A stretch of DNA of 48,855 nucleotides. It comes from a virus. The notes beneath the pieces were generated by a model that worked only from the letters and a program-made list of their open reading frames with translations, had not been told where the DNA came from and did not search any database. The DNA is taken from the IMG/VR virus record IMGVR_UViG_3300047388_000092, positions 1-48,855 of that record. One strand, 5' to 3'. Shown piece after piece: positions 1,450 to 47,710 of the stretch (its first letter is position 1; every line of letters begins with the position of its first letter). Both the position numbers and the translations under genes were made by a program.

Positions 1450-1472
1450 ACAAATTCAACGATTGAAAATGT
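1450..1472 (+). repeat. Start-associated palindromic motif, copy 1 (ACAAATTCAA CGA TTGAAAATGT)
   Basis: Fills the capsid-stop (TAA 1446-1448) to next-ATG (1473) spacer almost exactly. Confidence 0.9.
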
Positions 1473-4778: not shown

Positions 4779-4801
4779 ACAAATTCAACACTTGAATATG
4801 T
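4779..4801 (+). repeat. Start-associated palindromic motif, copy 2 (ACAAATTCAA CAC TTGAATATGT)
   Basis: The ATG inside the right arm (4798-4800) is in frame with the 4762..6393 ORF. Confidence 0.9.
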
Positions 4802-8380: not shown

Positions 8381-9544
8381 ATGCCTGATGACAATATGGT
8401 CCCCGGTGGTGGAGAGTTGACGAGTGGGTTCAACATAATCCAATCCCTCAAGAACAATAAGCACCTCAAGCAGTTGTCGCAGACTCCAATGTGGCAACAG
8501 CATATGAAGGACATTGGATTTGATGGAGTCTCTGCAAATGATTATCACGCGCATATGGCGATGTTCAATAACATCATGGAGCAAGCGCGTCAGAAAGCTG
8601 GGGAAACTAGAACCGCGGGGGAATTTGAAAAGTTGGGCGGGTTCACTCCACAAGGAGCCGCAGTTCATGAGCAGCAGTTGAGGACTCCTAGCGACATTGA
8701 GGAAGCCAAAGCACGCGCAAGCTTGAACACTGAGCAAGGAAAAACTCTAGGCTTCAAGCGTGGTCAAGAAGAAGCCTATAGTCAAACTCCGATGGGTCTT
8801 CCTGACTTGGCTAGGATGCCACGTGAGGCTGAGAAGCTTCGTGAGGTGGAAACAGGAACTCAAAGACTTCAAGGAGTCGGTGCGATGACCCAAGGACTAG
8901 CTTTCCTTCCTCCAGACCTCCAGCAAAATGCTCGTTCTTTCCTTGGTGGTTTGGTTAAAGGAGTTCCCGGAATTGATGAGTCAGCCTTTGCTCCGGGACC
9001 GGATAAGAATGCTGCGACTCTAAAAGCGATTGAGGATGCTGTGAGGGGAGGACAAAAACCTAATGCTTCAAGAGTTCCTCCTCAAGAACAATCTAATCCT
9101 TTTGTCCCCGAGCCACTTCGAGGAGTCCAAGGGATTGGTGATGTTCCTCCAGAGCAAGCTGCACAATATGCGGAGAAACATATCAATGAAATCACTCAGA
9201 GATTGCAGAAGTATGGACATGGATTAACTCCACAAGGACAAATTATTCCTCCAACTACTCAAACAATCGTTCCTCCTGCAACCACTGGAAGCCCCGGAAT
9301 GATGGGTTGGAATCCTCAAATGTTGCCGCAGACTACTCCAACCACAGCAAATCAAAGGCAAAATGTCCAGATGCAAGCTCAACCACTTCTTCAAGAACTC
9401 CAGAAAAGCATTCAAGGTTTGCAAAGCTTTGGTCAACAACCTTCTCAGCGTGGGCCTCAACCAGATCAGCTTCTTGAACTTCTCATGAATTCCGGTCTCC
9501 CAATCAACGAAATAATGCAACAACTGCTAAGGGGGCAAAAGTAA
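8381..9544 (+). CDS. Internal virion protein candidate (Gln/Pro-rich)
   Basis: 387 aa with a strong Shine-Dalgarno sequence (AGGAGGAAGG) upstream. Low-complexity Gln/Pro/Gly composition. The role is inferred from position only. Confidence 0.4.
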   Translation: MPDDNMVPGGGELTSGFNIIQSLKNNKHLKQLSQTPMWQQHMKDIGFDGVSANDYHAHMAMFNNIMEQARQKAGETRTAGEFEKLGGFTPQGAAVHEQQLRTPSDIEEAKARASLNTEQGKTLGFKRGQEEAYSQTPMGLPDLARMPREAEKLREVETGTQRLQGVGAMTQGLAFLPPDLQQNARSFLGGLVKGVPGIDESAFAPGPDKNAATLKAIEDAVRGGQKPNASRVPPQEQSNPFVPEPLRGVQGIGDVPPEQAAQYAEKHINEITQRLQKYGHGLTPQGQIIPPTTQTIVPPATTGSPGMMGWNPQMLPQTTPTTANQRQNVQMQAQPLLQELQKSIQGLQSFGQQPSQRGPQPDQLLELLMNSGLPINEIMQQLLRGQK

Positions 9545-9994: not shown

Positions 9995-10017
9995 ACAATT
10001 TCAATCATTGAAAATGT
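9995..10017 (+). repeat. Start-associated palindromic motif, copy 3 (ACAATTTCAA TCA TTGAAAATGT)
   Basis: Occupies the spacer between the stop TAA (9991-9993) and the ATG at 10018 of the giant ORF. Confidence 0.9.
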
Positions 10018-13000
10018 ATGGATAATTCTCAAGTTCCAGAAACTGGTATCCAAACCTCCGCACCACCAAAGCCTCTTGACTACGCCGGAGTCATGGACCT
10101 GTGGTCAAGGATTAAGGACAATCCAGCCATCAAGCAACAATTCCCGGATATGGGGGCAATGTCTCGTTGGTATGGGCAACAGACGGGTTCACCATTGTTG
10201 GCAGCAGGGGAGAAACCAAGCAAGATTAAGGACATTTCAGTTGGCCTTGACAAGTTGCTTGAAAAGACAGGCTTACCCGCGACGGCTGGTCAGGCAGTTG
10301 GAGGTCTTTATGAGAAGCTTGGACTCAAAAGGGAATCTGGGGAGCAACTAGGCCAAAGCCTCCCTCGTTCCTTCGCAGAAGTTGGTGCCCTTCTTGGTGG
10401 TGCGGCGATGATGGGAACTCCTGCCGCGCCGCTTGGAGCTGGTCTAATGGCCGCTGGTATTGCTTCACCAGCCGCTAAGACCTACGAGGAAACCGGCTCT
10501 CCCGTTGCTGGCCTTATCACAGGTGGGCTTCAAGCCGCACTTCCTGCTTCGGGTAGTCTAGGCCGCGCGGCTTTGGCTCCGGTTGGTCGAGCGTTGCTTG
10601 GTAAGGAAGTTCTCGACCAAGGAGTTAAGCAAATCATTCCAAGGTTCACAGGGAAAGGTGGGGAACTAATGATGAAAGCATTTGACTACCTTGGAGGTCA
10701 AGCGGGGGTTCTTGGGAACATGGAGGCTTCTAATGTGGGGGTTAACCTAGCCATTGGACAAAGTCCAGATTTCTCAGCCGAACATTGGGCAGGTCTAGGT
10801 CTTCAAATGCTTCCCACACTTCCTTTTGAGGTCAAAGCTGCAATTAAAGGACCAGAGCTTTCTCCAACAGGCCAACGGCCGTTCAACAGCTTTCTCGAAC
10901 AAAGCATGGCGGCTAAGAACCTCCAGAATCAATCAGTGGACAAAGCTGCCAAAGCCAAAGCTGTGGTCAATCGAATGCAAACCACAGAGGCAAGCCAGAA
11001 GACTCGTGTGGAAGGCAATGCGTCTGCTTATGATCCTTTTGACCCCTCGCAAGCTTTCGACATTTCCCACGCCTACAGTTCCTTCGGCGATTGGACCCGC
11101 GATGAGAATTCGACTCCTTCGGAAACCACAATGGGGATTAAGTCAGCTCAGCCTGCCCAGACAAGCCCGCGGTGGAAAGTGGGTGACGCGATTGCGATGC
11201 GGAATGGGGACATGAAAGTCACCCGAGTTGAACCCGGAGAAACACCTTATTATGAACTCAAAAACGACAAAGGATTCACACTTGGAATACCAGAGTCAAA
11301 TCTCATCCCTGAACAAGCAGCGAAAGCAATTGTTGCTACTGCAAGCGATCCTGTCAATGTCCCTACCACAGTTGAGAAAATGGCTGCTACGATGGTTGCA
11401 TCTAACGAAGTCAAAGGAGCAACTGGAGAACCTGCGGTTTCTGACCAGACGCTCATTGGTAAGATTGGAGAACAAGTTGATTCAGGAGCGGGACAAGGAG
11501 AAGCGGCGATTAAGGCGTCGAGAGCTATATTGAACGATGCGGTGAATTCGGTTGAGAAGTTAAATTGGGTTCACGAGGAAATGAAAAATCGTGGTTTAGA
11601 CCCTAATCGAACTTTCAACGATATTGACTTAGCCAATCCATCCGTGGTTGATGCAATCAAAAAAGACCCAACTTTAACTGAGGAGCAAAAAAGTCAACTT
11701 CTTAAAACTGGTTCTTTGAAACCTTTTTCAAAATCAACCAAAACTTGGCAAGAGTTGCGTGGTCAAGATGAAAAATTACAACAAAATATATCAAATTGGT
11801 TAGAAGGAACTGGACCAAAACCGGAAGAACCTACCACTTTGTATAGGGGAGTTCCTTCTGGAACTGAGCCAAAAGTCAATGAGAAATATACGCACACTTC
11901 TCCTTGGGGATACGTGGCTTCTCGTGGTGGTAAAGGTGCATTTGGTGATCCACGAGCATATGAAGTCCACGAAGCAAAAGCACAAAAAGGACATTTATAC
12001 TATCGTGGTGGTGCTCTTTCTGAATCACCTTTAGAGTCAACTCGGATAATGAACGCTAAGGGTATGACTTGGAATCAAGTTTTGGATGAGGGAAAAAAAT
12101 TATTTGATAGTAGAGTAACTAGAAGGTTAGCACGTTTGCAAAAAACAAATCCTGATTTTGCTGATTGGTCTGAAGTCGATCTTGAACAAGCAAGAAGTGA
12201 TGCAATTCGAGATGAACGCAATCGTGTTATTCATGATATACAAGTAGCTTCTTTTGAAGCCGACTTGAAAAATAAGCCGGGTCAATGGGCAAGTGGTAAT
12301 TTACCTAAAAAAGCAAATCGTCCGAATCCTGTTCTTCTTACTAGAGATGAAATAGACACTGCTTTGAAGAACAAACCACTTTCTGTCATTGAAGCAGTTT
12401 CCGATGGTGCGGAAAGAGATAAGGCAACAATGAAAGAGAACGCACCTGTTCTTGGTGCCCCAGTCACCCTCGAAGAAGCACAGGTTCACAAACCCAAAAT
12501 CTCCCAAAAAGAACTTGATCGCGTCAACGTTGTCATGGAGCAAATGCTCAACGGGCAGATTCAATGGAGGCTTGACACGAAGAAGAATAAGTGGCAATTC
12601 ACCTATTCCGACTACGCCGCCGAGGATTTGTTCAAGGCTTTTGGAACGAACAAGGATTCTATTGCGAACTGGTTGAGGTTGAATCGTGGTCTGTTACAAA
12701 AAATCATGGGTGACCGCTTGGCCAAAGGTGGCAAGATTGAGGCTTCAGGTGACTTCCAGCCTTTTGGTTCGACTCCGGAGTTGGTTGGGATTCCAACACA
12801 AATGCCACTTAACATTCCTCTTGGAGCTTCGGCTAGGTTATTCTTCCGCGACTACTTCCTCCGAAAAGGATATGGTGCAGAGAATGCCGAGCACTTGGCA
12901 GAAATTTCACAAAGAGTGGGTTCTTTGTTTCCAGAAATTGACAATATCCATCTGGCCAAGTTGACGACCTCAGAGTTCCTCCAAGGGAAGCTTTTTGGTA

Positions 13001-16000
13001 TTTTCCAACACACCGAACAAGGCTTGATTGGGATTTCTGATACCGAGGCTATTCGTGGAAACCGACCTTTCAATCAGTTCTTCAAGCTAGCCACCTTTGG
13101 TCATGAAGCCTCGCATGGACTCATTCGCGCCTACAACGAAGGCAAGCTTGACCCTGAGCGTGCACAGATGATGAGGAATGTCATTGATACCGTTTCCAAC
13201 TATAATGGAATCGAGAGACAAACCATCATGAACGACCTCTTCAAAATGGTTGTTCCCAAGGAAATCCAAAACGATCCTAATGTCAAAGACTTCATCAATC
13301 GCGCGGTGATCTCATCCTCAGAAACCCCCGCGGAGTTTGTGGCGGAATATGGGGCACTCATGGCGCTTGGATTGTCTAGTCCTGCGGAGTTCAAGGGGAC
13401 AGCAAGCGATTTGCGTCAATATATTCTCTTTTCACCTAAGCACCTTGGAGAGTTCGCCGCAGGCAACTTCCTTGACATGGCGAATATGGCTGAGGCTGTG
13501 GGGCATTATTTGAATGTTTATGGGGGGAGATCGAACGCAATGGCTGTGGATGTGACAAATATGTCCAAAGCGTTTCAGAGGCTTGCAAGAACCAAGCAAG
13601 AGATGGAACAAATTGAAAGACAGTTGGTCAAGTTCAACAACAACCTCGAAGGCGGCATGCCTAGTTTCTACGGCCAAATCTACGCGCAGGAGGTTCGCAC
13701 TCGTAATGCTTTTGGTGGGAAGATGGATGAGACATTGAGGGACATGGATGCGCAGTTCATTGCAGCAGCTAAGAGTCCCAACTTTGGTCTTGAACCAAAC
13801 TTCTATGAAAGGAACTTCCTTCCGGCAGCACAATTTGCCGAGAGGTTTCCAATTTGCAAACCAATCATCGATGTGGCCTATGGTTTTCGTAGCCTTGCAA
13901 ACCAATTCGGAATGAACCTTCTTCGTCCATTCATGGGAGCGGACAAGAAAGGGAAGCTCACCCTTGACCCGGAGCATTCAGGTTTGACTAGAATCCTCCA
14001 AGACCCCAAGCTCCAAGATGCTATCAGTGCAGTTTTCCTTGAGCAGAACGCCCGGATGAAAGAAGGGAAGGTTCAAGAGCCAATGACTCCTCAGGAAATC
14101 TCTGACGTAGCCTCGCGGTTTGGAGTTGGCAAGAATGATGCGGACATAATTGTGAATCAATTTGGAGCCACAATGCAAGCAATGCAACAAGCTAGGGAGA
14201 CTAGACTCCGCGCGGGAATTCAAAGAGTTGGAGTTACTGTGGCTCATCGTTTTTTGGGAGTCAATGGACTTGATGCAACCTCCGCACATTATTATGGCAC
14301 TCAACTTTCAGAGGCCATGTGGGAGAAGTCTTTGGCCACTCAAGAAGGGAATTTGGTTGCTGCTCAACAAGCTGATTTGCAACTTCAATCTATTGCCAAA
14401 GTTGTTGGTCCTGAACCTTTTCAAAATGCGGTTAATGATGCTACGGATTTACACAAGATTTTAGCCACTCAAAAAACCGCCGATGACGCTCAACCCTTTT
14501 ACACCCCCGAGGTTCGTCTTGGGCGCTATTTTGTTCGCTACACCTTCACAGACAACGAGAAGCCCTTTGTGATGGGTTACAAGACTAGAGCTGAGATGGA
14601 AGCTCAAGTTCAGAAAGCGCAAGGAATGGCTAACGTCAACTCGGATTCTATCAATGTCTGGGACGCGGCAGATAAGAGGTCAGATAGCAATTTGTTGAAC
14701 TCCAACGCAGCTAGAGCTTATACCCAGTTGGAGAAGGCTGCTTTTGACAAAGCCAAAGCAATCTCACTTTCCCGCGATCCTGAGTTGGAATCAGTGTTCG
14801 ACAAGCTTAGCTATCAACCGGGTGAAGCAGTTTACAAAGAAATGCTTGCTCGTGGTATGGGAAAGCACACTCTCCAGCGCTCCTTAACACCCGGCCGAGA
14901 ACAGTTGAATATGATGGAAGGAGTGGTTAGCTATCTCAATGGACTAGGGGCTGGCTTGTCCAAGAATTATACCAAAGACCTTGCGATGCTTCACTTGTCC
15001 GATCCTTCCATGACAGAGAACCCCAAGGTTCGTAATTTGATGAGAGATTACATTTCCCAAGTGGTGGACCCTCCCGCGAAGGAATGGGGGAAAGTCAAGA
15101 TGGGAATTTTCCTGTCCACGCTTGGGATGAACTTTTCCTCGATTGTGGTCGAAAGGCTGCAACCCTTATTTTCTTTGGTTCCTTACCTCACCCAAAACGG
15201 TTCTGGAATAATGGGGAGTTACAAATATATGGGAAAGGCTTGGGGACTTCTCTCCAAGCTCAAAGTTGAGCAAGGAAAGATGTCGGGGATTGACCCTGAA
15301 CTTTCCAATGCTCTCTCTAAAGCTGTCGAGAACAAAGTTGTTGACTATGGAATCTATGACGAACTCCCACATCAAAGTGACCTCCAAATTACCAATCTGC
15401 GCAACCTCGCAACTAATTCACCAAATGTCATCAAGTCAGCTGCCAGCCTCGCAACAAAGCCTCTCGCTGCTTACGCAAGCTTTGCTAGAAACCTATACAC
15501 AAATCAGGCTTCGACAAGTTCAAGAACTGCTTTCTTGGCCTCGTATTTACTTGGAAAAGACAAGGGAATGTCACCTGATGCAGCTTACAACTTTGCCACC
15601 CAAGCAACACGAGCAACCATGCATGGTGGAGGTTCTGCTGCCCGTCCCATTGGGGCCTTTAATAACTTGGGAAAGCTTTATGGTGCTGCCAGTGCCCTCT
15701 ACTGCCTCCAGCATTATACCACAAGTTCCATTGGAATGTTATACCGCATGGCAATGGACGGATTTTCTTCTAAGAGACAAGAGGGCATGTCGAGTGAGCA
15801 GATTAGCAACATGAAGAAAGGGTTCACGCAGATGTTTGTGACGCAGGTTGCGGCATCTGGTGCAATGGGACTTCCTTTTCTTGGTTTTGCCGCAGCAGGG
15901 TTAGAGCAGCTTTTGCCGAACGCTCAGATTAAAGCTAACCTTCGTGAAGGATTGGCGTCCCTTGGAGGTGACGACCAAGAAACTGGCCAAGCAATCTCCG

Positions 16001-16914
16001 ACGCGGTCATGAATGGCTTCGCAACCAAAGCCCTTGGACTTGGCGCGATTGATGTCTCTGGAAGATTTGGACTAGGCCAAATGCTTGGTGTGGACAATAC
16101 AACCGGATTCAACGCGGCTGGTTTCTTTGGCGCTGGTGCGAGCGTGCTCCAGAACTTTGCACGTGGGATTCAGTTGGCCTCGGAGGGAAAGTATGCCCTA
16201 GGAGCTGCTGCTGCTGCACCATCAGCTTTCAAACAACTCATCAAAATGGTCCACAATGATTGGGACATTAGGGATGAACATGGTGCCCTAATTTACCACC
16301 CGTCAGACTTTGAAAAAGTAGCCTCAGTGCTTGGATTTCATCCCAAGAAAATGTCTGAGATTCGCGAGCAAACAGAATTATCTCAACGTGCATCGGATAT
16401 TGCATCGCGACAACTTCGAGATTTTCACGAAGAGCTTTCAGTCCAACTACAAAACGGAGAGATTCCTCGAGTCCGTGCGGAGTTGTTGGAAAAGCATAAG
16501 CAAGACCCAACCTACGACCCTGCCGCTGGATTAGCTGAAGTGGTTCAAATGTGGCAAGACCGGATGACCCCGAAGGTGCCGGGTCAACAAGGGTCCAAGG
16601 GTTCATTATTCCAGAGGGAACAGATTGGTCAGACATTTGAACAACAAGCTCCGTTATCCGCGACGCAACTCTATCTTCAACGAAAGCAAATGGAAGCTAA
16701 GTTTGGCCTCCCCGGAACAGGAAGTCCAAGTCATCGGGAGTTGACTCAAGCGGAGATGGTTGACCGTTTGCGCCAGATGCACCCTGGCCTTTCTCTCCAG
16801 CACGCGCAAGCAGTTGTTGAACAGCAGATGGGACAAACTCGGTCAATGCGAGCATCTCCTTTTGTCCCGATTTCCACCGAACCAGGCGTCCGGACTGGTG
16901 CAGGTGGTCCCTAG
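10018..16914 (+). CDS. Giant internal virion / DNA-ejection protein with zincin-like HExxH motif
   Basis: Uninterrupted 2,298-aa ORF at the end of the structural arm. It has Gly/Ala-rich hydrophobic stretches near both ends, e.g. GALLGGAAMMGTPAAPLGAGLMAAGIA and VAASGAMGLPFLGFAAAGL. An HEASH motif lies at nt 13102-13116 (aa 1029-1033) with a downstream AEFVAEYG. Confidence 0.7.
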   Translation: MDNSQVPETGIQTSAPPKPLDYAGVMDLWSRIKDNPAIKQQFPDMGAMSRWYGQQTGSPLLAAGEKPSKIKDISVGLDKLLEKTGLPATAGQAVGGLYEKLGLKRESGEQLGQSLPRSFAEVGALLGGAAMMGTPAAPLGAGLMAAGIASPAAKTYEETGSPVAGLITGGLQAALPASGSLGRAALAPVGRALLGKEVLDQGVKQIIPRFTGKGGELMMKAFDYLGGQAGVLGNMEASNVGVNLAIGQSPDFSAEHWAGLGLQMLPTLPFEVKAAIKGPELSPTGQRPFNSFLEQSMAAKNLQNQSVDKAAKAKAVVNRMQTTEASQKTRVEGNASAYDPFDPSQAFDISHAYSSFGDWTRDENSTPSETTMGIKSAQPAQTSPRWKVGDAIAMRNGDMKVTRVEPGETPYYELKNDKGFTLGIPESNLIPEQAAKAIVATASDPVNVPTTVEKMAATMVASNEVKGATGEPAVSDQTLIGKIGEQVDSGAGQGEAAIKASRAILNDAVNSVEKLNWVHEEMKNRGLDPNRTFNDIDLANPSVVDAIKKDPTLTEEQKSQLLKTGSLKPFSKSTKTWQELRGQDEKLQQNISNWLEGTGPKPEEPTTLYRGVPSGTEPKVNEKYTHTSPWGYVASRGGKGAFGDPRAYEVHEAKAQKGHLYYRGGALSESPLESTRIMNAKGMTWNQVLDEGKKLFDSRVTRRLARLQKTNPDFADWSEVDLEQARSDAIRDERNRVIHDIQVASFEADLKNKPGQWASGNLPKKANRPNPVLLTRDEIDTALKNKPLSVIEAVSDGAERDKATMKENAPVLGAPVTLEEAQVHKPKISQKELDRVNVVMEQMLNGQIQWRLDTKKNKWQFTYSDYAAEDLFKAFGTNKDSIANWLRLNRGLLQKIMGDRLAKGGKIEASGDFQPFGSTPELVGIPTQMPLNIPLGASARLFFRDYFLRKGYGAENAEHLAEISQRVGSLFPEIDNIHLAKLTTSEFLQGKLFGIFQHTEQGLIGISDTEAIRGNRPFNQFFKLATFGHEASHGLIRAYNEGKLDPERAQMMRNVIDTVSNYNGIERQTIMNDLFKMVVPKEIQNDPNVKDFINRAVISSSETPAEFVAEYGALMALGLSSPAEFKGTASDLRQYILFSPKHLGEFAAGNFLDMANMAEAVGHYLNVYGGRSNAMAVDVTNMSKAFQRLARTKQEMEQIERQLVKFNNNLEGGMPSFYGQIYAQEVRTRNAFGGKMDETLRDMDAQFIAAAKSPNFGLEPNFYERNFLPAAQFAERFPICKPIIDVAYGFRSLANQFGMNLLRPFMGADKKGKLTLDPEHSGLTRILQDPKLQDAISAVFLEQNARMKEGKVQEPMTPQEISDVASRFGVGKNDADIIVNQFGATMQAMQQARETRLRAGIQRVGVTVAHRFLGVNGLDATSAHYYGTQLSEAMWEKSLATQEGNLVAAQQADLQLQSIAKVVGPEPFQNAVNDATDLHKILATQKTADDAQPFYTPEVRLGRYFVRYTFTDNEKPFVMGYKTRAEMEAQVQKAQGMANVNSDSINVWDAADKRSDSNLLNSNAARAYTQLEKAAFDKAKAISLSRDPELESVFDKLSYQPGEAVYKEMLARGMGKHTLQRSLTPGREQLNMMEGVVSYLNGLGAGLSKNYTKDLAMLHLSDPSMTENPKVRNLMRDYISQVVDPPAKEWGKVKMGIFLSTLGMNFSSIVVERLQPLFSLVPYLTQNGSGIMGSYKYMGKAWGLLSKLKVEQGKMSGIDPELSNALSKAVENKVVDYGIYDELPHQSDLQITNLRNLATNSPNVIKSAASLATKPLAAYASFARNLYTNQASTSSRTAFLASYLLGKDKGMSPDAAYNFATQATRATMHGGGSAARPIGAFNNLGKLYGAASALYCLQHYTTSSIGMLYRMAMDGFSSKRQEGMSSEQISNMKKGFTQMFVTQVAASGAMGLPFLGFAAAGLEQLLPNAQIKANLREGLASLGGDDQETGQAISDAVMNGFATKALGLGAIDVSGRFGLGQMLGVDNTTGFNAAGFFGAGASVLQNFARGIQLASEGKYALGAAAAAPSAFKQLIKMVHNDWDIRDEHGALIYHPSDFEKVASVLGFHPKKMSEIREQTELSQRASDIASRQLRDFHEELSVQLQNGEIPRVRAELLEKHKQDPTYDPAAGLAEVVQMWQDRMTPKVPGQQGSKGSLFQREQIGQTFEQQAPLSATQLYLQRKQMEAKFGLPGTGSPSHRELTQAEMVDRLRQMHPGLSLQHAQAVVEQQMGQTRSMRASPFVPISTEPGVRTGAGGP

Positions 16915-17977
16915 CATTGTTGTAGTCCTGCTCATTGGCGTCGTTCCAAAGGATTGAACGGAGCTGCTTCTCGGACATTTCCGCGCGGTGCATTTCGAGG
17001 ACTTGGATCATTTTGTTGGTGACTTGGGTTAGCTCGTTCCGTCCGATGCCTTGAAACACTTGAGGCAACTTCTTCTCAACAGAGCCTAGCAAGTCCAGAG
17101 CTGTCCTCAAGTGCGCCTCCTCGATCATTAGGCTAGTTCCCTCGCTAAGAGCCACAAGCATGGAAATCTTGAGAACAAGAACGTGCTTGGAATCATAGTA
17201 TCCTTGAAGGGAAATATCCTTCGTTTCCTCCATTTCCAAATACCATTTTTCGAAGAACGCTTTGGCATTTGGTGCCCATAGGAATTGGCCGACGACTCCT
17301 TTCAGTCTCCTTCCATGCTGCACGCATCTATCCCATGCGTCTTTTTGTTCTGGTGTAACCTTCGGAAATGGGACTCTCCTAGCTTTGGTCGTTTCAAATA
17401 CGAACAAATTACGACGACTAAAACCACCAGATAGCACATCGTCACGTAGATGACGAGTAATCCATTCCGGAGTGTCGCAAGCAAGGATGCAGAGGAACGG
17501 GTTGGTGATGATGATGTCTTCTTTATTCCGGGTTTTGTAGTCATAGTAATCTTGGTCCCAAACTGCTACGGTGAAGGAGATCATGTTTTGGAGAGAGACT
17601 CCAAGGAAGTCTTTGAGTTCTCCCACGCAAACCGTCATTGGCATATAGGTCTTTGGTTGGCCGTTGACAAGATAAGCGATTTCGTTGGAGGACATTTGTT
17701 TGATTAGGCCTTCGCGGGACTCAAGCTGCGCGGCGAAATGTGTATCTCCAATCTGTCGCATCATATCTTTCGAGAGAAACATAGCAGTAGATTTACGATT
17801 GCCAGCTGGACCAACCAACACAACATAGATGTTCGGATATATCCATTGATGACCATAATCAATCCACACCCGACGACCAACAGTTGAAGCAAGAGCAACA
17901 AAAGCGCTCCAGACGTGATAGTTTGTATGGGCTTCATTACATTCGTTGAAGAAAAGGTAGTCTCGAAGAAAAGACAT
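16697..17977 (-). CDS. P-loop NTPase, replicative helicase candidate (SF3 / VirE-D5-like)
   Basis: Walker A GPAGNRKST lies about 60 aa from the N-terminus, followed by an acidic strand VCVGE. The track start (TTG at 18004) only translates motif copy 4, so the ATG at 17977 inside the motif is preferred. The 3' end overlaps the giant ORF by 218 nt. Confidence 0.6.
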   Translation of the reverse strand: MSFLRDYLFFNECNEAHTNYHVWSAFVALASTVGRRVWIDYGHQWIYPNIYVVLVGPAGNRKSTAMFLSKDMMRQIGDTHFAAQLESREGLIKQMSSNEIAYLVNGQPKTYMPMTVCVGELKDFLGVSLQNMISFTVAVWDQDYYDYKTRNKEDIIITNPFLCILACDTPEWITRHLRDDVLSGGFSRRNLFVFETTKARRVPFPKVTPEQKDAWDRCVQHGRRLKGVVGQFLWAPNAKAFFEKWYLEMEETKDISLQGYYDSKHVLVLKISMLVALSEGTSLMIEEAHLRTALDLLGSVEKKLPQVFQGIGRNELTQVTNKMIQVLEMHRAEMSEKQLRSILWNDANEQDYNNARDHLHQSGRLVRWKSGQKEMLALTEFVPSAVQQLLARAGEKGQGASGANGQPSPLESTPDDLDFLFRGGQT

Positions 17978-17996
17978 ATTCAATCGTTGAATTTGT
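17974..17996 (-). repeat. Start-associated palindromic motif, copy 4 (minus strand: ACAAATTCAA CGA TTGAATATGT)
   Basis: Abuts the polymerase stop codon (TGA, 17997-17999). Its internal ATG (17977-17975) is in frame with the helicase-like ORF. Confidence 0.9.
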
Positions 17997-24185: not shown

Positions 24186-24208
24186 ACATTTTCAATCATT
24201 GAATTTGT
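24186..24208 (-). repeat. Start-associated palindromic motif, copy 5 (minus strand: ACAAATTCAA TGA TTGAAAATGT)
   Basis: The 3-nt spacer TGA is the stop codon of the PLD-like gene (24196-24198). Confidence 0.9.
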
Positions 24209-29191: not shown

Positions 29192-29709
29192 AGCATTATT
29201 ATGAACCCTCGATCATCGTTGGTGACTCCAACGTCGAAGGTTTTGGTAAGGTTGAGAACCTCCTCGATTGGAAAGTTCTTAATTTTCACTGGTTTGTTAA
29301 CTACTTTGGTGTGGATAAGGATTGCACAGGCGACGATTTGTTGAGGGATGGGGCGGTCAAGGGTGCAGAGGAAGTTGTCTTTGTCGCCTTGGACGTCTTG
29401 TGGACCTTGGACCGCTTCGAGAGCCTTGGTGCCTTTCTGACGAACCACAACCATACCTGCTTTGGTTGTAACTTCCAATTCGGGCCAAATTGTTTTAAGT
29501 CTTTCAAGGTCAACTGGAGAAGTCCAGTTATATTCGATGAGGGAGGAAACTGCATCTCGTAGGCGACATGAAAAAGTTGTTGAGGCAAGGCCAACTTCTT
29601 GCGGGTCAAAAGAACACGCTTGCGGATAGTGCGCGACGATTGCTTGAAGTGCTTTTTCATAACGGCGGAACATTTTTTCGGATTTGTGAGGGGGAGGTTG
29701 AGGGTTCAT
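29188..29709 (-). CDS. Hypothetical protein
   Basis: 173 aa, preceded by a 126-nt non-coding spacer (29710-29835). Confidence 0.55.
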   Translation of the reverse strand: MNPQPPPHKSEKMFRRYEKALQAIVAHYPQACSFDPQEVGLASTTFSCRLRDAVSSLIEYNWTSPVDLERLKTIWPELEVTTKAGMVVVRQKGTKALEAVQGPQDVQGDKDNFLCTLDRPIPQQIVACAILIHTKVVNKPVKIKNFPIEEVLNLTKTFDVGVTNDDRGFIIML

Positions 29710-29835
29710 ATTAGAAAGACCAACACAAGGGAGCTAGGCATTTCACATCAATGGCTTATATTACCGAATTTATACGGCATGTCGTCAACCAGTCCTTTGG
29801 TTCATGGTGAGCCACGCGGAGTGTTGGTCCAAAGT

Positions 29836-30111
29836 TCATTCAAATTTCAGTTGTGCGTCTGGAAAAACCAACGTCTCACCATCACTAGCCCTCTCTGCCA
29901 CCAAGAATCTTGGCGTTGTCGAATGACGGATTGAACTAGCTTGGATTTGAATTTTCGTGTCATTATTCGGGTCCCAAATCCACCAAGTCAAGTAGCGAAT
30001 ATGCGATTTGCTTGGCTTGGCGACGTTCGGCGCGGTTTGGTCCTGTTCTTGCTTTTGGCTTTGGTTGTCCTTTGCGAGGACTTTTCCCAACTCCACATTC
30101 AATGCGCTCAT
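29836..30111 (-). CDS. Hypothetical protein (ambiguous pair with 29963..30235)
   Basis: ATG-initiated part (MSALNVELG...) of track ORF 29836..30288. The C-terminal half looks beta-rich and protein-like. Confidence 0.35.
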   Translation of the reverse strand: MSALNVELGKVLAKDNQSQKQEQDQTAPNVAKPSKSHIRYLTWWIWDPNNDTKIQIQASSIRHSTTPRFLVAERASDGETLVFPDAQLKFE

Positions 30112-30235
30112 ATGTTGATTGTTGTGTTTTGTAATAGACGTTTGGGTCAAGAGAAACTTTTGGATTGTAGCTCCTTGGTTTAGGGTCAAGCTGGTCAAAG
30201 CTTGGAGGGGCAGTGATGGTTTGGTAAGGAGCCAT
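29963..30235 (-). CDS. Hypothetical basic protein (ambiguous pair with 29836..30111)
   Basis: 90 aa. The ATG at 30235 lies 3 nt downstream of motif copy 6. It overlaps the other frame by ~150 nt. Confidence 0.35.
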   Translation of the reverse strand: MAPYQTITAPPSFDQLDPKPRSYNPKVSLDPNVYYKTQQSTYERIECGVGKSPRKGQPKPKARTGPNRAERRQAKQIAYSLLDLVDLGPE

Positions 30236-30238
30236 AAG

Positions 30239-30261
30239 ACAAATTCAATGATTGAAAATGT
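30239..30261 (+). repeat. Start-associated palindromic motif, copy 6 (plus strand: ACAAATTCAA TGA TTGAAAATGT), the only copy oriented against its flanking genes
   Basis: The flanking genes are on the minus strand. The ACAAATTCAA arm points toward the gene-free segment 30262-30406. Confidence 0.9.
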
Positions 30262-30400
30262 GCTGCTTGGCTCGAATGTAGCTCCCACAAGCCGACGCGG
30301 GAGCTAAGCAATAAGCGTCAAACGCTGGTCGGTCTCCGCTATTCTTATTGCTTATGTGCTTCATTCAATTCCTGCACTTCGGAGTTCACCAAGCAGCACA
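30259..30400 (+). ncRNA. Candidate structured RNA or inverted-repeat-bounded element (strand uncertain)
   Basis: A perfect 12-bp inverted repeat (TGTGCTGCTTGG at 30259-30270 and CCAAGCAGCACA at 30389-30400) encloses two 8-bp hairpins. These are TAGCTCCC/GGGAGCTA (30279-30286 / 30299-30306) and GCAATAAG/CTTATTGC (30308-30315 / 30344-30351). No plausible ORF, and no U-tract after the hairpins on either strand. Confidence 0.3.
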
Positions 30401-30406
30401 AATGGT

Positions 30407-30658
30407 TTAGGTTATTTGAAGGACTTCAAGCAAATGACAGCCGGTGTTGCTCAACTTGTCGTTGATTTCACTCAGATCATAGGTGTCAATATGAGAGTCC
30501 AACTTATCTTCTTCAATATCGTCTTGCAATGCGTCATCTCGTAAGAGTTCACGCACCTTCTCAATTTGAAGTGCCGCCAAGCTTTCGTTCTTTGCTTCAA
30601 CTTGACGTAAGGTGAGGCTATCGTCGCCTTCTTCTGCCCAACCAACTACGTATTTCAT
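30407..30658 (-). CDS. Small strongly acidic protein
   Basis: 83 aa from ATG 30658, preceded by GAACAAATT. About 21 Asp/Glu against 8 Lys/Arg. Confidence 0.5.
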   Translation of the reverse strand: MKYVVGWAEEGDDSLTLRQVEAKNESLAALQIEKVRELLRDDALQDDIEEDKLDSHIDTYDLSEINDKLSNTGCHLLEVLQIT

Positions 30659-30671
30659 AATTTGTTCTTTC

Positions 30672-30704
30672 AAAAGGCTAGGTGGACATGTGGCTCCCAC
30701 CTAG
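30672..30704 (-). terminator. Intrinsic terminator candidate downstream of 30762..31433
   Basis: Minus strand reads CTAGGTGG-11 nt-CCACCTAG followed by CCTTTTG. Confidence 0.5.
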
Positions 30705-30761
30705 ATTGGGCCGAAAGATAACCAGAGTTAACTAGCCCCGCCACAACACCCAAGGTTTTTC

Positions 30762-31433
30762 TTAGGCTTCCACCATTGCGGTATATTGTCCCGCAAGCTT
30801 CTTGTTTTCCTCCGCGCGTTTGCGAGCCTCGTTCAAGCTGATTGCCTTGCCAAGAGACTCCCGCGTAGCTTCGACAACAATACCTTTGTTGCCAGCTTCT
30901 GTGAGAATCTTTTGGAGTGCAGCGGCGACAGCGGTGGCTTTGTCCGCACCAGCTGCAATAATCTGGTCCGCAGCGTCCAAGTAAGCCTTCGCGGTCTTCT
31001 TTGGCTGCATTGGTCCGCGCTCCGAGGCCGATGCGTCGAACGGAATTTGAGCGGCGACTTGGTCAGCCAGTTCCTTGAAGGAGCTTGGTTCCTGGCCGAG
31101 CTTGGCACAGACGCGAGCGAAATAGTCGCCTTCGGTTTCTGTGTATTTCTCGACCACGCCATCCTTGTCCTTGGTGGCTTCGCGTTCGATTCCAGTTTCT
31201 TCCTCGATACCTTTGATCGCGGGGATGTTGTTCGCAGGGTCTGCATCCTGTCCATGCAGGAACACAGGACGAAAGACCGCGAGCCAACTGCGATAGACTA
31301 CATTGTTAATCGCTTCGCGGAGACAGGCATCAACGTTTGCGTCGCCTTTTGCGTTTTCGTTGAATTCTTCATGCGTTGCAGGAACAGGAACTTGGATTTC
31401 AATTCCAAGTGATTTGAACGGTTTTGTTGTCAT
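30762..31433 (-). CDS. Hypothetical protein (223 aa), apparently its own expression unit
   Basis: Clean ORF that looks visibly GC-richer than its neighbours. The antisense track ORFs here look spurious. It is flanked by a 96-nt upstream spacer and a downstream hairpin plus T-tract. Confidence 0.6.
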   Translation of the reverse strand: MTTKPFKSLGIEIQVPVPATHEEFNENAKGDANVDACLREAINNVVYRSWLAVFRPVFLHGQDADPANNIPAIKGIEEETGIEREATKDKDGVVEKYTETEGDYFARVCAKLGQEPSSFKELADQVAAQIPFDASASERGPMQPKKTAKAYLDAADQIIAAGADKATAVAAALQKILTEAGNKGIVVEATRESLGKAISLNEARKRAEENKKLAGQYTAMVEA

Positions 31434-32710: not shown

Positions 32711-32965
32711 TTAGATTGTTACTTGATGGAACGTATGCGTAGTGCTCGAAAACACAAGCATCGTTGGTTTTGGTTGAACAACCTTCTTGCTCCAAGAGCG
32801 GAGTTCTTTGTGAACTTCTTGGAAGGCTTGACAAACTACGCGGTTGGCATTAGCTGCCACGAAACGGCGAACTTCGTCTCGGGTGAATTTGAGTTTGCGT
32901 CCATTTCCAGTTCCATCGCACTTCGTAGCTCGAGGAACAATTTCAATGGTTGAATTTGTTTTCAT
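32711..32965 (-). CDS. Hypothetical protein
   Basis: 84 aa. ATGA overlap with the upstream gene. Codons 2-9 (KTNSTIEI) are motif copy 7. Confidence 0.45.
   Translation of the reverse strand: MKTNSTIEIVPRATKCDGTGNGRKLKFTRDEVRRFVAANANRVVCQAFQEVHKELRSWSKKVVQPKPTMLVFSSTTHTFHQVTI
32937..32959 (-). repeat. Start-associated palindromic motif, copy 7 (minus strand: ACAAATTCAA CCA TTGAAATTGT)
   Basis: Begins 3 nt after the ATG at 32965. This is one of the two copies whose right arm lacks an ATG. Confidence 0.9.
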
Positions 32966-33303: not shown

Positions 33304-33340
33304 GTCATGCTATTTCTTTCTAGTTTGGCCACCAAGGATA

Positions 33341-33368
33341 AGCTCGCAAGCTGATTAGCTCGCCAGCT
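33341..33368. promoter_or_regulatory. Two tandem 12-mers AGCTCGCAAGCT / AGCTCGCCAGCT, 16-nt period (operator-like)
   Basis: They differ at one base, and each is bounded by AGCT...AGCT. They sit in the 33304-33449 spacer upstream of 32962..33303. Confidence 0.35.
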
Positions 33369-33449
33369 TTCCACCACTATAAACGAAAAGCGGACCAGAA
33401 GCAAGCAAGCTTTTCTGCTTTGGAGCTTTCCTTAGTTGGCTTTGTTTGC

Positions 33450-33656
33450 TTAAAGATTGATATAGTTCGCATCTTGCCCACCTTCCGGAACACAAAGAGT
33501 CAACTTAATCTCTCTAGTTCCAACTGGAAGATGTCGACGATCGACATAGATACTCGATGCGATTCCAAACTCATCCTGCGACGAGAGGACCGGCTCAAAC
33601 ACTACTAAGTGCTTGCAGTCTTTTTTGAATTTGAAAGTTTGAGTTATTTGTTTCAT
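33450..33656 (-). CDS. Hypothetical protein
   Basis: ATG-initiated 68-aa part of track ORF 33450..33785. ATGA overlap with the upstream gene. Confidence 0.4.
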   Translation of the reverse strand: MKQITQTFKFKKDCKHLVVFEPVLSSQDEFGIASSIYVDRRHLPVGTREIKLTLCVPEGGQDANYINL

Positions 33657-34370: not shown

Positions 34371-34393
34371 ACAATTTCAATGATTGAATTTGT
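34371..34393 (-). repeat. Start-associated palindromic motif, copy 8 (minus strand: ACAAATTCAA TCA TTGAAATTGT)
   Basis: Lies in the spacer between the HNH gene stop (34436) and the ATG at 34351. Confidence 0.9.
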
Positions 34394-35395: not shown

Positions 35396-35438
35396 AAACA
35401 AAAAAGGGGAGTCAGGAGCCACTTGGCTCCCAACTCCC
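35396..35438 (-). terminator. Rho-independent terminator after 35449..35730
   Basis: Minus strand reads GGGAGT-TG-GGAGCC-AAGT-GGCTCC-TG-ACTCCC followed by CTTTTTTGTTTTG. Confidence 0.8.
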
Positions 35439-35448
35439 GCTTTGCTCT

Positions 35449-35730
35449 CTATTGGACGCTGGCCATCAGGTTGGCCGCGAGCGCCGTAGCTTTGGTCTTC
35501 TTCTCGCTGAACTTGGCCTGCTTCCGCGCGGAGCTGTTGCTCCCATACGCGCAGCACTCTTGCATTGCGGCCAAGTCCTTGGGATCAGCCTTTTGGATTT
35601 TCAGCATGGTCGTGGCCGTGATTGCACCACAAACATTCTGGTCCCACTTTGGCTCCGTGATCTCGTTCTTTTCACAGATTTGATCACAAACCGAATCCCA
35701 CAAACCACGAACTGCTTCCTTTGTCATCAT
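35449..35730 (-). CDS. Cys-rich hypothetical protein, monocistronic leftward unit
   Basis: 93 aa from ATGATG at 35730 (MMTKEAVRGLWDSVCDQICEK...). It has its own terminator. Confidence 0.5.
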   Translation of the reverse strand: MMTKEAVRGLWDSVCDQICEKNEITEPKWDQNVCGAITATTMLKIQKADPKDLAAMQECCAYGSNSSARKQAKFSEKKTKATALAANLMASVQ

Positions 35731-36035: not shown

Positions 36036-36222
36036 GCTTTATGGTTGAAGTGCGGGAGAGCTTGGGAGCGGGTGAGCTGGAGAGCTTGCGCTTGGTTGAG
36101 AAACTAGAGCCAAGTTTTCAAGTTCAACTGAGGGGTGTGGTTAAGGTTTCCTTGGCGAACGAGAGCCAAGGGGAGCTTGGTCCACGCGCGATTCTTGTCA
36201 TGAAGCAAGCGGAGTTGACCCA

Positions 36223-36928: not shown

Positions 36929-36951
36929 ACAAATTCAATCGTTGAATATGT
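36929..36951 (+). repeat. Start-associated palindromic motif, copy 9 (ACAAATTCAA TCG TTGAATATGT)
   Basis: The internal ATG (36948-36950) is in frame with terL. Confidence 0.9.
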
Positions 36952-43637: not shown

Positions 43638-43660
43638 ACAAATTCAACCGTTGAAAATGT
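43638..43660 (+). repeat. Start-associated palindromic motif, copy 10 (ACAAATTCAA CCG TTGAAAATGT)
   Basis: Abuts the stop TGA (43635-43637). The next ATG is at 43662. Confidence 0.9.
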
Positions 43661-45469: not shown

Positions 45470-45697
45470 ATGTTCGCCGACATTTCATTGCACACAAGTT
45501 CAAACAGTGGAGGGAATTTAGTTAACTCCCTTATTTGGCTTGTGGCAGTTGGAATTGTTTGTTGGCTTCTTTGGTGGTTCATTGACTACGCCAAAGTTCC
45601 TGAGCCATTTAACAAAGTCGCGCGGGTGATTGTGGCCTTGGTCGCAGTCATTTTTCTAATCCGCCTTGTGATGAACATTGCGGGTTCACCTTGGTAA
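45470..45697 (+). CDS. Small membrane protein
   Basis: ATG at 45470, 2 nt after the previous stop. Two hydrophobic helices (LIWLVAVGIVCWLLWWFI and VIVALVAVIFLIRLV). Confidence 0.45.
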   Translation: MFADISLHTSSNSGGNLVNSLIWLVAVGIVCWLLWWFIDYAKVPEPFNKVARVIVALVAVIFLIRLVMNIAGSPW

Positions 45698-45718
45698 TCA
45701 CGGTCAAGTCGAACCATT

Positions 45719-47710
45719 ATGATGCCTTCATATGACGAATTGAAGAAGAAGGAAATCTCACAAGATCACCTTCAACTCCTGAATCATGTGAAGGAGATGG
45801 TTCGCCTTTCTCGTGAACACATGCAGAAGAAATACTCTGATTGGGACCATTATGACGAAATCTACCGCGGGATTCGTATGATGGATACGGAGGACAAGAA
45901 AGCGAATGAGAAGAAGGAACCAATTAAGATGGTGGTTCCGCTTGGATATGCACAATTGCAAACTTTTGTTGCTTTTTGCTTCACCTTGTTTACCCAAAGA
46001 GAATACTTTTATAATTTGATTGGTTCCTCTCCAGAGGACTTTAAGGCTGCGGAGATTGGTGAGGCTCTCCTTCAACGTGATCTTGACCATAACAAGTTTG
46101 GAAATTTGCTCTACCAATGGCTTCTCGACATTGGACGATTTGGTTTGGGGATTATGAAAGACCATTGGGTTGAAGAAACTCAAATGATCGAGCAAAACCT
46201 TCCACCAAAGACCTTAAGTTTTCTTGGCCTTTCTATGACTCTTCGTTCAGCTAAGACCCAAAAGGTTCCCGCAATCAAGTTTCAAGGTAACAAACTCCAG
46301 AATGTCTCCCCTTACCGCTTCTTTCCGGACCCAAGGATTCCTCTTTCTCGGTTTCAGGAAGGGGAATGGGTGGCTAGTGAGGAGGAATATTCGTCTGTAG
46401 ATTTGAAACAAATGGAAGCGGAGGGAGTGGTTGCTGGAGTGGATTACATTCAACAATTTCGTAACCCTGATGTTCTTCGACGAACGGCAAGGAATGGATT
46501 TGTGGATGTTATGACGCAAATGACCTCGGCAATCCGCTCGAATGTCAAGCCGGCAATTATTAACACAGAGATTGTGGCTAAGATTATTCCGTCGAAGTTC
46601 AAATTGGACAACAAGCCAATCGGTGAAGAGGATTATCCTGTCAAGTATTTGATCTGGTATGCCAATGATTCACGAATTATTCGTTGCGAACCATTTTCTT
46701 ATCTCCATGACCAGTTTCCTTATACCCTTGGTGAAATGTCCCCGGATATGAACCATTTCCTCAATTCTGGTCTACTTGAATCCATTGACGAGCTTCAAGA
46801 TGTGATTTCTTGGTTCATCAATTCTCATGTGCGCTCAGTTCGCCGCACGATTGACAATCAGCTAATCGTGGACCCCGTAGGAATTGTCATGGATGACCTT
46901 AAGAACCATCGTCCTGTGATTCGTCTCCAGCCCGATGCCTCACGCTCAGGAGTTGAACGTTGGATTAAACAACTTGAGGTTCGAGATGTGACAGGAAACC
47001 ACGTCCAAGACGCGGCTTTTCTACAAAAGATGATTGAAACCGTAACAGGAATCAACGACAATCTCCTTGGCCAATTTCATGGTGGGAGGCGCTCGGCCAC
47101 AGAAGCACGAAACGTAACAGCTTCTGCTGGAAGTCGACTTAAAGTAATTTCGTCCATCCTCTGGACTGGTGCTTTGGAGCCGCTTGGTCGACAGATGCTT
47201 TCCAACCTTCGCGACGGTTTGACGGTTCAAACATATGTGCGCATATTTGGAAGTGCAGCTGAGGGCGGCTCCTTTCAACAATTTAAGCAGATTAGTAGGC
47301 AGGATTTGGTTGGGGATTACGATTTTGCGGTTTTTGATGGGACTTTACCATCGGAGAAGGAATATAAGGCTGACATCCTTATGCAGCTTGTGGAGATGCT
47401 TTTTGGTAATCCAATGGCCATGCAACTCCTTGGCCTTGACCCAAGGATGATTGTTATGGACATTCTCCGAATGAAAGGTATCAAATATCCTGAACGTTAT
47501 TCAATCCAAAACAACCCTCAAGCAATGGCCCAAATGTTGCAAATGCAACAAATGACTCAACAAAATGGACAACAAAATGGACAACCAAACGGAAACCAAG
47601 CCCCAGTTCGGGGAAATGGAAACGTTGGAAAAGCTCCGGCTTCTCAACGAATGGATGCGGCACCCGGTAACGATTTACTTGCTGGCCTCGTTAGAGGCGG
47701 TGGCGAGTAG
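45719..47710 (+). CDS. Portal protein
   Basis: 663-aa ORF immediately upstream of the scaffold-like and capsid genes, with a Gln/Asn/Gly-rich C-terminal tail. The call rests on size and synteny. Confidence 0.75.
   Translation: MMPSYDELKKKEISQDHLQLLNHVKEMVRLSREHMQKKYSDWDHYDEIYRGIRMMDTEDKKANEKKEPIKMVVPLGYAQLQTFVAFCFTLFTQREYFYNLIGSSPEDFKAAEIGEALLQRDLDHNKFGNLLYQWLLDIGRFGLGIMKDHWVEETQMIEQNLPPKTLSFLGLSMTLRSAKTQKVPAIKFQGNKLQNVSPYRFFPDPRIPLSRFQEGEWVASEEEYSSVDLKQMEAEGVVAGVDYIQQFRNPDVLRRTARNGFVDVMTQMTSAIRSNVKPAIINTEIVAKIIPSKFKLDNKPIGEEDYPVKYLIWYANDSRIIRCEPFSYLHDQFPYTLGEMSPDMNHFLNSGLLESIDELQDVISWFINSHVRSVRRTIDNQLIVDPVGIVMDDLKNHRPVIRLQPDASRSGVERWIKQLEVRDVTGNHVQDAAFLQKMIETVTGINDNLLGQFHGGRRSATEARNVTASAGSRLKVISSILWTGALEPLGRQMLSNLRDGLTVQTYVRIFGSAAEGGSFQQFKQISRQDLVGDYDFAVFDGTLPSEKEYKADILMQLVEMLFGNPMAMQLLGLDPRMIVMDILRMKGIKYPERYSIQNNPQAMAQMLQMQQMTQQNGQQNGQPNGNQAPVRGNGNVGKAPASQRMDAAPGNDLLAGLVRGGGE

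Follow-up and report, generated by a model that had tools for sequence, protein, structure and literature searches.

A branched intercistronic hairpin fused to a near-palindromic motif at a gene-block boundary of a novel phage: a candidate terminator-like element

In the viral genome record IMGVR_UViG_3300047388_000092 (positions 1 to 48,855; "the window" hereafter denotes this whole stretch of 48,855 nucleotides (nt) that was analysed), two minus-strand genes are separated by a gene-free gap that holds a 142-nt segment (30259-30400) with a branched fold, closed by a perfect 12-base-pair (bp) inverted repeat and abutting one copy of a recurrent 23-nt motif that is formally turned against its neighbouring genes. 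The question raised by this locus is on which strand, and in which capacity, such an element could act. The account to which we give most weight, at somewhat less than an even chance, is that of a cis-acting, terminator-like intercistronic hairpin on the gene-strand polycistronic messenger RNA (mRNA), which would define or shield the 3' end of the upstream message, with a restart at the motif. An earlier note, made from the letters of the window, had led instead with an antisense RNA launched from the reversed motif.

The fold itself stands out clearly from its background. On the minus strand, the segment has a minimum free energy of -61.3 kcal/mol (z -6.0) and on the plus strand one of -55.7 kcal/mol (z -4.7), with none of 200 shuffles as good in either case; the comparison with shuffled controls, which the earlier note had proposed as a way to dismiss the segment, thus left it standing. 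Among 9742 stretches of 150 nt covering both strands of the window, positions 30251-30400 on the minus strand rank first after correction for G+C content. Deprived of its closing stem, the interior is still structured (z -3.2), and the minus-strand fold is kept when the segment is folded within 281 nt of context. The earlier estimate that about 0.4 such 12-bp repeats within 150 nt are expected by chance is arithmetically right; hence, the repeat alone proves nothing, and it is the whole fold that constitutes the evidence. The next most stable 150-nt stretches of the window lie at 33311-33460 (minus), 36051-36200 (plus) and 45691-45840 (minus), with G+C-adjusted z between -3.4 and -3.75.

The three main pairings that had been described from the letters are present. 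The outer arms (30259-30270 and 30389-30400) are complementary at 12 of 12 positions and reach 13 bp with an extra U·G on the minus strand, and the inner pairing of 30279-30286 with 30299-30306 is complete (8/8). The third, described as an 8-bp stem (30308-30315 with 30344-30351), does exist, with a true length of 11 bp (30305-30315 with 30344-30354; 11/11). A further GTGC/GCAC pairing occurs in the minimum-energy fold of neither strand, and a 7-bp helix with one U·G on the minus strand (P2 in Table 1) has to be added. That the gap lacks a plausible open reading frame (ORF) was likewise borne out: the only one, of 39 amino acids (aa) and starting with ATG (30245-30364, minus strand), is not conserved and is uncalled in the source contig. 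A coding role was considered and rejected, given that this ORF and a 36-aa ORF in the corresponding element of a related locus (L006) share only a C-terminal HIFN, which is encoded by the motif itself. Membership in a described RNA family, a further check suggested at the outset, was not found either: Rfam gave no match in the whole window at gathering thresholds and, for 30100-30550 at E up to 10, just three chance matches to eukaryotic microRNAs or long non-coding RNAs, far below threshold, and ARAGORN placed no transfer RNA (tRNA) at the element.

Read along the gene strand (Table 1), the closing stem P1 consists of seven G-C, five A-U and one G·U pair and ends at 30259. In the minimum-energy fold, the outermost bases of the 11-bp repeat at the base of P3 are given over to P4, which on the plus strand would form the eight Watson-Crick pairs with a single isolated pair on top. 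The 3' arms of P4, P2 and P1 follow one another without a gap, resulting in 31 consecutive paired nucleotides. The earlier note had seen no U-tract; this holds for the inner hairpins, and fails for the closing stem, which on the minus strand is followed directly by UUUU. The minus-strand tail UUUUCAAU (30258-30251) contains five T in eight positions, and as TTTTCAAT, with five T in eight, the tail satisfies the tail rule of the terminator scan. As the note had stated, the motif overlaps the closing stem by three nucleotides, ACA being common to both. The downstream 90-aa gene heads the block of replication genes; a homologue search with its protein as query gave no match, and the upstream 83-aa gene has no PHROG match. 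Positions 30168-30176 (minus strand; AAGGAGCUA), about 50 nt inside the 90-aa gene, are perfectly complementary to its start region (30226-30234, minus strand; UGGCUCCUU, in which the UG of the AUG is included), and this pairing could mask the start codon. The sequence GGAGCUACAWUC is also present in the 3' arms of P4 and P2.

The phage of the window is novel. Its proteins include an SU10-like capsid and portal, a UDG-PolA fusion, a PD-(D/E)XK exonuclease, a Sak4-like protein and a ligase. Neither the window nor the segment had a DNA match among 50,697 phage records in near and distant search modes; single IMG/VR queries with the 223-aa protein encoded next to the element and with the exonuclease gave no close relatives, and exact copies of the window's proteins were found in one contig only. 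About 40 syntenic loci were collected through homologues of the 223-aa protein at 29-56% identity (Logan, ENA, JGI, IMG/VR). The window's TTCAA-N3-TTGAA form of the motif is present in four of them, namely L045, L006, L008 (with duplicates L009 and L010) and L032, at 47-56% protein identity.

In the window and in all four of these loci, a hairpin of the layout TGTG..hairpin..CACA is fused to the motif, and an ATG follows within 1-5 nt; homologues of the 90-aa protein (..YNPKVSMDPxVxYxTQSSxYxRL..) lie downstream of the hairpin in the relatives. With arms chosen from each locus's own fold, and in five related sequences only, 96% of the cells of the outer 10 bp are paired versus 24-56% with a slid partner, and both sides have changed in six of the ten pairs. 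Above this base, little is held constant. The hairpins measure 32, 38, 73, 120 and 142 nt in total, nhmmer detected no similarity between their interiors, and branching is confined to the element of the window: those of L006 and L045 are unbranched, near-continuous rods of 43 and 31 pairs, and those of L032 and L008 have just 13-14 bp. The covariation that had been proposed as a check is, hence, found in the closing stem, which is conserved, and the inner stems are not conserved.

This comparison also bears on the idea that the segment is a DNA-level or functionless feature—a MITE-like insertion (miniature inverted-repeat transposable element), an origin that forms a cruciform or a palindrome that expanded neutrally—for which the 12-bp terminal inverted repeat, the strong length variation between relatives and the adjoining replication genes could be cited. 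We consider this very unlikely, since the terminal repeat has no second copy in the window, no target-site duplication or flanking direct repeat is visible, the segment finds no DNA match among the phage records, and both the covarying outer stem and the strand-asymmetric G·U pairing described below are out of keeping with it. A gapped-pattern search of IMG/VR with the inner 11-bp repeat returned three unrelated AT-rich hairpins, which were taken as chance matches. The insertion proposed as an alternative in the earlier note, which foresaw relatives lacking exactly 30259-30400, gains no support here either: relatives keep hairpins of 32-120 nt with the same TGTG/CACA base at the very same place.

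The strand on which the fold is carried can be judged from its G·U pairs only, each of which becomes a C·A mismatch on the opposite strand. For the element of the window, the sense strand folds at -60.5 kcal/mol versus -54.9 kcal/mol for the antisense strand, with five and three G·U pairs, respectively. The corresponding values are -51.7 versus -37.1 kcal/mol (G·U 5 and 1) for L006, -40.7 versus -25.5 kcal/mol (7 and 0) for L045, -20.3 versus -18.3 kcal/mol (2 and 0) for L008, -16.3 versus -15.0 kcal/mol (1 and 0) for L032 and -24.9 versus -23.0 kcal/mol (2 and 0) for L007. Scored against shuffles, the sense and antisense folds reach z -6.6 versus -3.6 in L006 and -8.4 versus -5.3 in L045, and in these two the asymmetry is plain. 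Of seven comparable hairpins in relatives, five favour the sense strand, as does the element of the window, and those of L044 and L042 fold slightly better on the antisense strand. Genome-wide, there is a bias of about 3 kcal/mol toward the plus strand, and the gene strand is favoured at the element despite this bias. The asymmetry in G·U pairing points to selection on an RNA of the gene strand, not on DNA.

What, then, does the reversed motif signify? The window contains ten copies of ACAWWTTCAA-N3-TTGAAWWTGT (Table 1), each located after a stop codon and before the region where the next gene starts; at some, the ATG follows after 0-9 nt, often without a Shine-Dalgarno sequence, and others have a Shine-Dalgarno-like sequence in between. 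As 18 of its 23 positions are palindromic, the orientation of the motif is held by two spacer dinucleotides and the central base, i.e., by 5 of the 23 positions. Formally, the earlier note was right in calling copy 30239-30261 the sole reversed one: read on the plus strand, it matches the reverse complement of copy 24186-24208 on the minus strand exactly, and the nine remaining copies share the direction of their genes. No other copy of the ten is abutted by a hairpin. The left spacer of this copy, read on the gene strand, is TT, versus AA or AT in the other copies. Position 4 of the motif is T in all five hairpin-adjacent copies (the window, L006, L045, L032 and L008) and in none of 11 other copies (window and L008), counts in which the copies are not phylogenetically independent. 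The simplest reading of these letters would be that the U's behind the stem come from the T-rich spacer, with the motif keeping its normal relation to the gene-strand ATG. Because the spacer would double as the source of the U-tract, the "reversed" copy could be explained without any antisense transcription.

The plus-strand RNA that the earlier note preferred would start at a directional, reversed promoter motif, run antisense to the end of the 83-aa gene and have pairing 5' and 3' ends. Consistent with this are the exact reverse complementarity to a co-oriented copy, the recurrence of the reversed-type left spacer at this place in relatives, a motif variant lying 5 nt upstream of a tRNA-like RNA in the related locus L040 (compatible with the motif marking transcript starts), and the plus-strand fold, which at z -4.7 is good as well. 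Nevertheless, for the window and for five of seven relatives' hairpins, the G·U pairs and the folding energies side with the gene strand, the spacing of the motif to the gene-strand ATG is normal in a sequence with just five oriented positions, no terminator follows the element on the plus strand, and the motif is no more than a putative promoter; neither a sigma-70-like promoter nor a terminator was reported on the plus strand at the element. With the gene strand favoured and a near-palindromic motif at its usual distance from the ATG, we regard such an antisense RNA as highly improbable.

As for the motif in general, promoter, operator and RNA signal are all candidates for its role. Pfam scans of 20 larger ORFs revealed no RNA polymerase or sigma factor, and the exact oriented motif had no match in IMG/VR. 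Lineage variants preserve its symmetry, as seen in ATCAA-N3-TTGAT in L040 and CTCAA-N3-TTGAG in L042. In a second group of IMG/VR phages, with a PolA protein 27% identical, a near-identical motif, ACAnnTTCAAAWTTTGAAnnTGT, is present in at least six copies, several of which precede a Shine-Dalgarno sequence and ATG by about 35 nt; in two members (L046 and L047), a terminator-like hairpin surrounds the motif and is followed by a T7 tract.

Arranged on the gene strand, these parts would make up a boundary element in the following manner. The G+C-rich, 13-bp P1 would stack on two further helices, which would account for the 31 paired nucleotides on the 3' side, and P1 together with the immediate UUUU would form a leaky, factor-independent, terminator-like signal. 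The same hairpin may guard the 3' end of the upstream message against 3'-to-5' exonucleases, while the motif, fused to the 3' arm and in its usual place before the next ATG, would allow downstream expression to resume. The apparent reversal of the motif would mainly reflect non-palindromic spacers that have turned from A-rich to T-rich, giving the U's after the stem, and the 118-nt interior would be a lineage-specific expansion of a hairpin that is simple in some relatives.

Such a boundary hairpin is supported by strand, position, the covarying base, the free interior and the T-rich spacer, and by the presence elsewhere in the window of a canonical strong hairpin-plus-U terminator. The latter, at 35403-35462 on the minus strand, has an 18-bp stem with 14 contiguous G+C-rich core pairs and a long U-rich tail, and is situated in a region of small genes near the divergent early genes. 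The first alternative of the earlier note, a compound structure on the minus-strand mRNA, is the one that the evidence favours.

Several observations weigh against the boundary hairpin. Between the arms lies a loop of 118 nt with up to three branches; canonical intrinsic terminators have loops of 3-8 nt, and a stem with so long a loop closes more slowly during transcription. The terminator scan did not call the element, because its loop is 118 nt long and branched. The U run is short, with four U's in the window and weaker tails in relatives (TATTCAAG, TTATTCAA; three to four T in eight). The small hairpin P1a pairs better on the plus strand, and the strand margin of the window itself is modest, at about one standard deviation from the genome-wide distribution. 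The covariation carries the limits named above. Finally, the equivalent in distant relatives is a two-part rod of 20-26 bp, mostly without a U-tract, and for such rods a processing or stability site fits better than a terminator.

Compared with intrinsic terminators, the element has in common a G+C-rich stem followed by a short U run on the coding strand, a place 6 nt past a stop codon at the boundary of a gene block, and a stem that covaries around an unconstrained loop. It differs in the 118-nt branched loop, in a U run of only four and in the fact that these U's belong to a conserved, start-adjacent palindrome. Since it lacks the short loop, one defining feature of canonical terminators, we file the element as a variant of the terminators and not as a plain member. 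It is probably of an ordinary kind in an unusual size, with no pointer to a new mechanism.

The U-less rods bring in an explanation by processing. In this account, the coaxially stacked P1-P2-P4 rod would be an RNase III-type site, similar to the intercistronic R-sites of phage T7, and be cut by the double-strand-specific RNase of the host; the cut would separate the two messages and leave a protective 3' hairpin on the upstream one, making termination unnecessary. For RNase III of Escherichia coli, substrates as a rule comprise two helical turns, and internal loops limit cleavage to one strand, so that protective 3' hairpins remain (PMC1540722). The 31 consecutive paired nucleotides on the 3' strand would be in line with such a site, as would the near-continuous rods of L045 (31 pairs) and L006 (43 pairs) and the family-wide two-part rod after the 223-aa gene. 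This rod follows the 223-aa homologue in L020, L023, L025, L027, L028, L022, L024 and L014, with a counterpart in the window (Table 1); its lower stem (often UUCAA../..UUGA) is joined through a small internal loop to an upper G+C stem capped by a tetraloop. The rod folds more stably on the gene strand and resembles T7-type RNase III sites.

The element itself shares with the T7 sites and their stabilising hairpins the position between cistrons of a phage polycistronic message, a stacked, interrupted duplex that may amount to two turns or more, a position that is conserved while the sequence is not, and a predicted protective 3' hairpin (PMC1540722). It differs from them in being branched instead of a two-stem rod. 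Moreover, the hairpins of L032 and L008, at 13-14 bp and with the same fused layout, are too short on their own, binding could be impeded by the side branches, whose two branch points lie on the 5' strand, and the T-rich spacer beside the hairpin in all five loci is left unexplained. We hold cleavage of this kind to be rather unlikely, though it is the main rival of the boundary hairpin.

Alternatively, the gene strand might give rise to a separate, stable non-coding RNA about 145 nt long that acts in trans. Such an RNA would be released at the end of the early message, derive from the 3' untranslated region of the 83-aa gene and have its 3' end at UUUU. It would fill the slot in which distant relatives carry tRNA-like RNAs and might, for instance, divert a host RNase or defence protein as a decoy. 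The element does have the most stable fold in the genome, with an interior that is structured by itself (z -3.2), and at least nine distant relatives have branched tRNA-like RNAs of 95-142 nt nearby. Set against this are an interior that is unconserved in sequence, length and topology even among the closest relatives, a 5' end without an evident promoter or processing signal, the want of an Rfam match and the failure of a covariance model of the tRNA-like RNAs to match. Both the discrete RNA and its proposed equivalence to the tRNA-like RNAs appear distinctly unlikely to us.

These tRNA-like RNAs, encoded near the homologues of the 223-aa and 90-aa genes, are an observation in their own right (Table 1). 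Their acceptor-like stem has 7 bp, which can be extended to 9-10 bp in some, and is accompanied by a GUGGYGRAW..ACGC D-arm and a T-arm that abuts the 3' acceptor strand, with variable hairpins of 40-90 nt in place of the anticodon arm and, in most cases, a T-rich tail next. ARAGORN and Rfam at gathering thresholds with default filters miss them; under permissive filters, the tRNA model gives one of them 31 bits. Constructed from four members, a covariance model recovered five held-out ones (E 1.5e-5 to 0.02) and has both-side changes in 12 of its 16 modelled pairs. The family appears to be undescribed and, being supported by covariation, may merit more attention than the element itself. The latter resembles it in neighbourhood, in the size range of 95-142 nt, in branching, in its long-range closing stem and in the mostly T-rich tail. 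As a member of the family, however, it was rejected: the model gave no match on the window and, with filters off across 29600-30900, a best score inside the element of 4.4 bits (E about 1), and neither the GUGGYGRAW D-arm motif nor a T-arm is present.

The combination of a repeated, start-adjacent motif with a neighbouring inverted repeat has a precedent in layout. In Cluster K mycobacteriophages, start-associated sequences (SAS, with a 13-bp consensus) and extended start-associated sequences (ESAS) are found directly upstream of start codons in many copies, with unproven function (PMC3203893). As in the window, nearly all of those copies share one direction, apart from a single site on the opposite strand in some genomes, and some are preceded by an imperfect inverted repeat with a variable spacer (PMC3203893). 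The sequences are unrelated, though, and the motif described here is itself palindromic, with an inverted repeat at only one of ten copies; the repeat of the ESAS has 17-bp arms and a 4-13-bp spacer, while that of the element spans 142 nt. The Pfam matches of the window, to SU10-type capsid and portal proteins, point to a different phage lineage, and the likeness rests on layout only.

If the reading as a boundary hairpin is right, the element would mark a transcription-unit boundary, with early genes upstream and replication genes downstream, in a phage lineage without cultured relatives. It would further indicate that a boundary hairpin and a start-associated palindrome can fuse, the motif spacer doubling as a terminator U-tract. 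The element is an example of a hairpin that has grown to a branched 142 nt with constraint at the stem base alone, and its practical value lies in annotation and in the interpretation of the ten-copy motif.

Table 1. Positions of the element's parts on the gene strand, of its flanking genes and of related features in the window and in other loci.
Feature	Positions	Strand	Remarks
Upstream 83-aa gene	30407..30658	-	Stop codon 30409-30407, 6 nt before closing stem; in ORF list and called in source contig
P1, 5' arm (UGUGCUGCUUGGU)	30388..30400	-	12/12 repeat, 13th pair U·G; outer 10 bp covary in four relatives
P1a hairpin, 3 bp (UCC/GGA), 8-nt loop	30370..30383	-	From minimum-energy folds; weak, least certain helix
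P2, 5' arm (UUGAAUG)	30362..30368	-	Partner 30272-30278; its U·G is a C·A mismatch on the plus strand
P3 hairpin	30307..30352	-	Base within 11-bp repeat 30344-30354 / 30305-30315; small apical hairpin on top
P4 hairpin, 6-nt loop	30279..30306	-	11 bp: eight Watson-Crick, one C-G, two G·U
P2, 3' arm (CAUUCGA)	30272..30278	-	From dot-bracket structure
P1, 3' arm (GCCAAGCAGCACA)	30259..30271	-	Ends in ACA, the 3 nt with which the motif begins
UUUU directly 3' of closing stem	30255..30258	-	T-rich motif spacer (two T's) plus first two T's of TTCAA
23-nt near-palindromic motif, gene strand ACATTTTCAATCATTGAATTTGT	30239..30261	-	One of ten copies
Downstream 90-aa gene	29963..30235	-	ATG 30235-30233, 3 nt past motif; without Shine-Dalgarno
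Two-part hairpin after 223-aa gene	30667..30717	-	Upper stem 30678-30704; counterpart of family-wide rod
Motif, ten copies in the window	1450-1472, 4779-4801, 9995-10017, 17974-17996, 24186-24208, 30239-30261, 32937-32959, 34371-34393, 36929-36951, 43638-43660		
tRNA-like RNAs of relatives	L011:2086-2186, L013:1038-1179, L014:2342-2441, L022:1926-2038, L023:2294-2418	+ of locus	
tRNA-like RNAs of relatives (continued)	L024:1701-1822, L027:916-1037, L028:5017-5111, L040:1789-1916	+ of locus	
Motif copies, second phage group	L046:452-474; L047:2836-2858; L054:2796-2818, 8386-8408, 10522-10544, 12371-12393, 13066-13088		

Some minor observations were made in the surroundings of the element and in the wider family. 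Downstream of the 90-aa gene, there is another gene-free gap of about 250 nt (29710-29962), in which no significant structure was found (z -1.0 for 29715-29960) and the tRNA-like model gave only a 4.5-bit match (E about 1). ARAGORN called a tRNA-Leu(CAG) at 12711-12788 on the plus strand, which has no Rfam tRNA match, lies inside a 2298-aa ORF and is probably a false positive. This ORF (10018-16914, plus strand) comes after the structural genes and directly follows a copy of the motif; a PHROG search at E up to 0.01 gave no match for it. For the 223-aa protein, an AlphaFold model (pLDDT, i.e., predicted local distance difference test, 85) had no informative match in the PDB or BFVD. Among 185,579 species genomes, the sole match to this protein, at 35% identity, was on a 30.7-kb contig (L063; CAYIIH010000050.1) from a metagenome-assembled genome of an uncultured member of the Verrucomicrobiota, which may be taken as a weak hint at the host phylum of the wider phage family.

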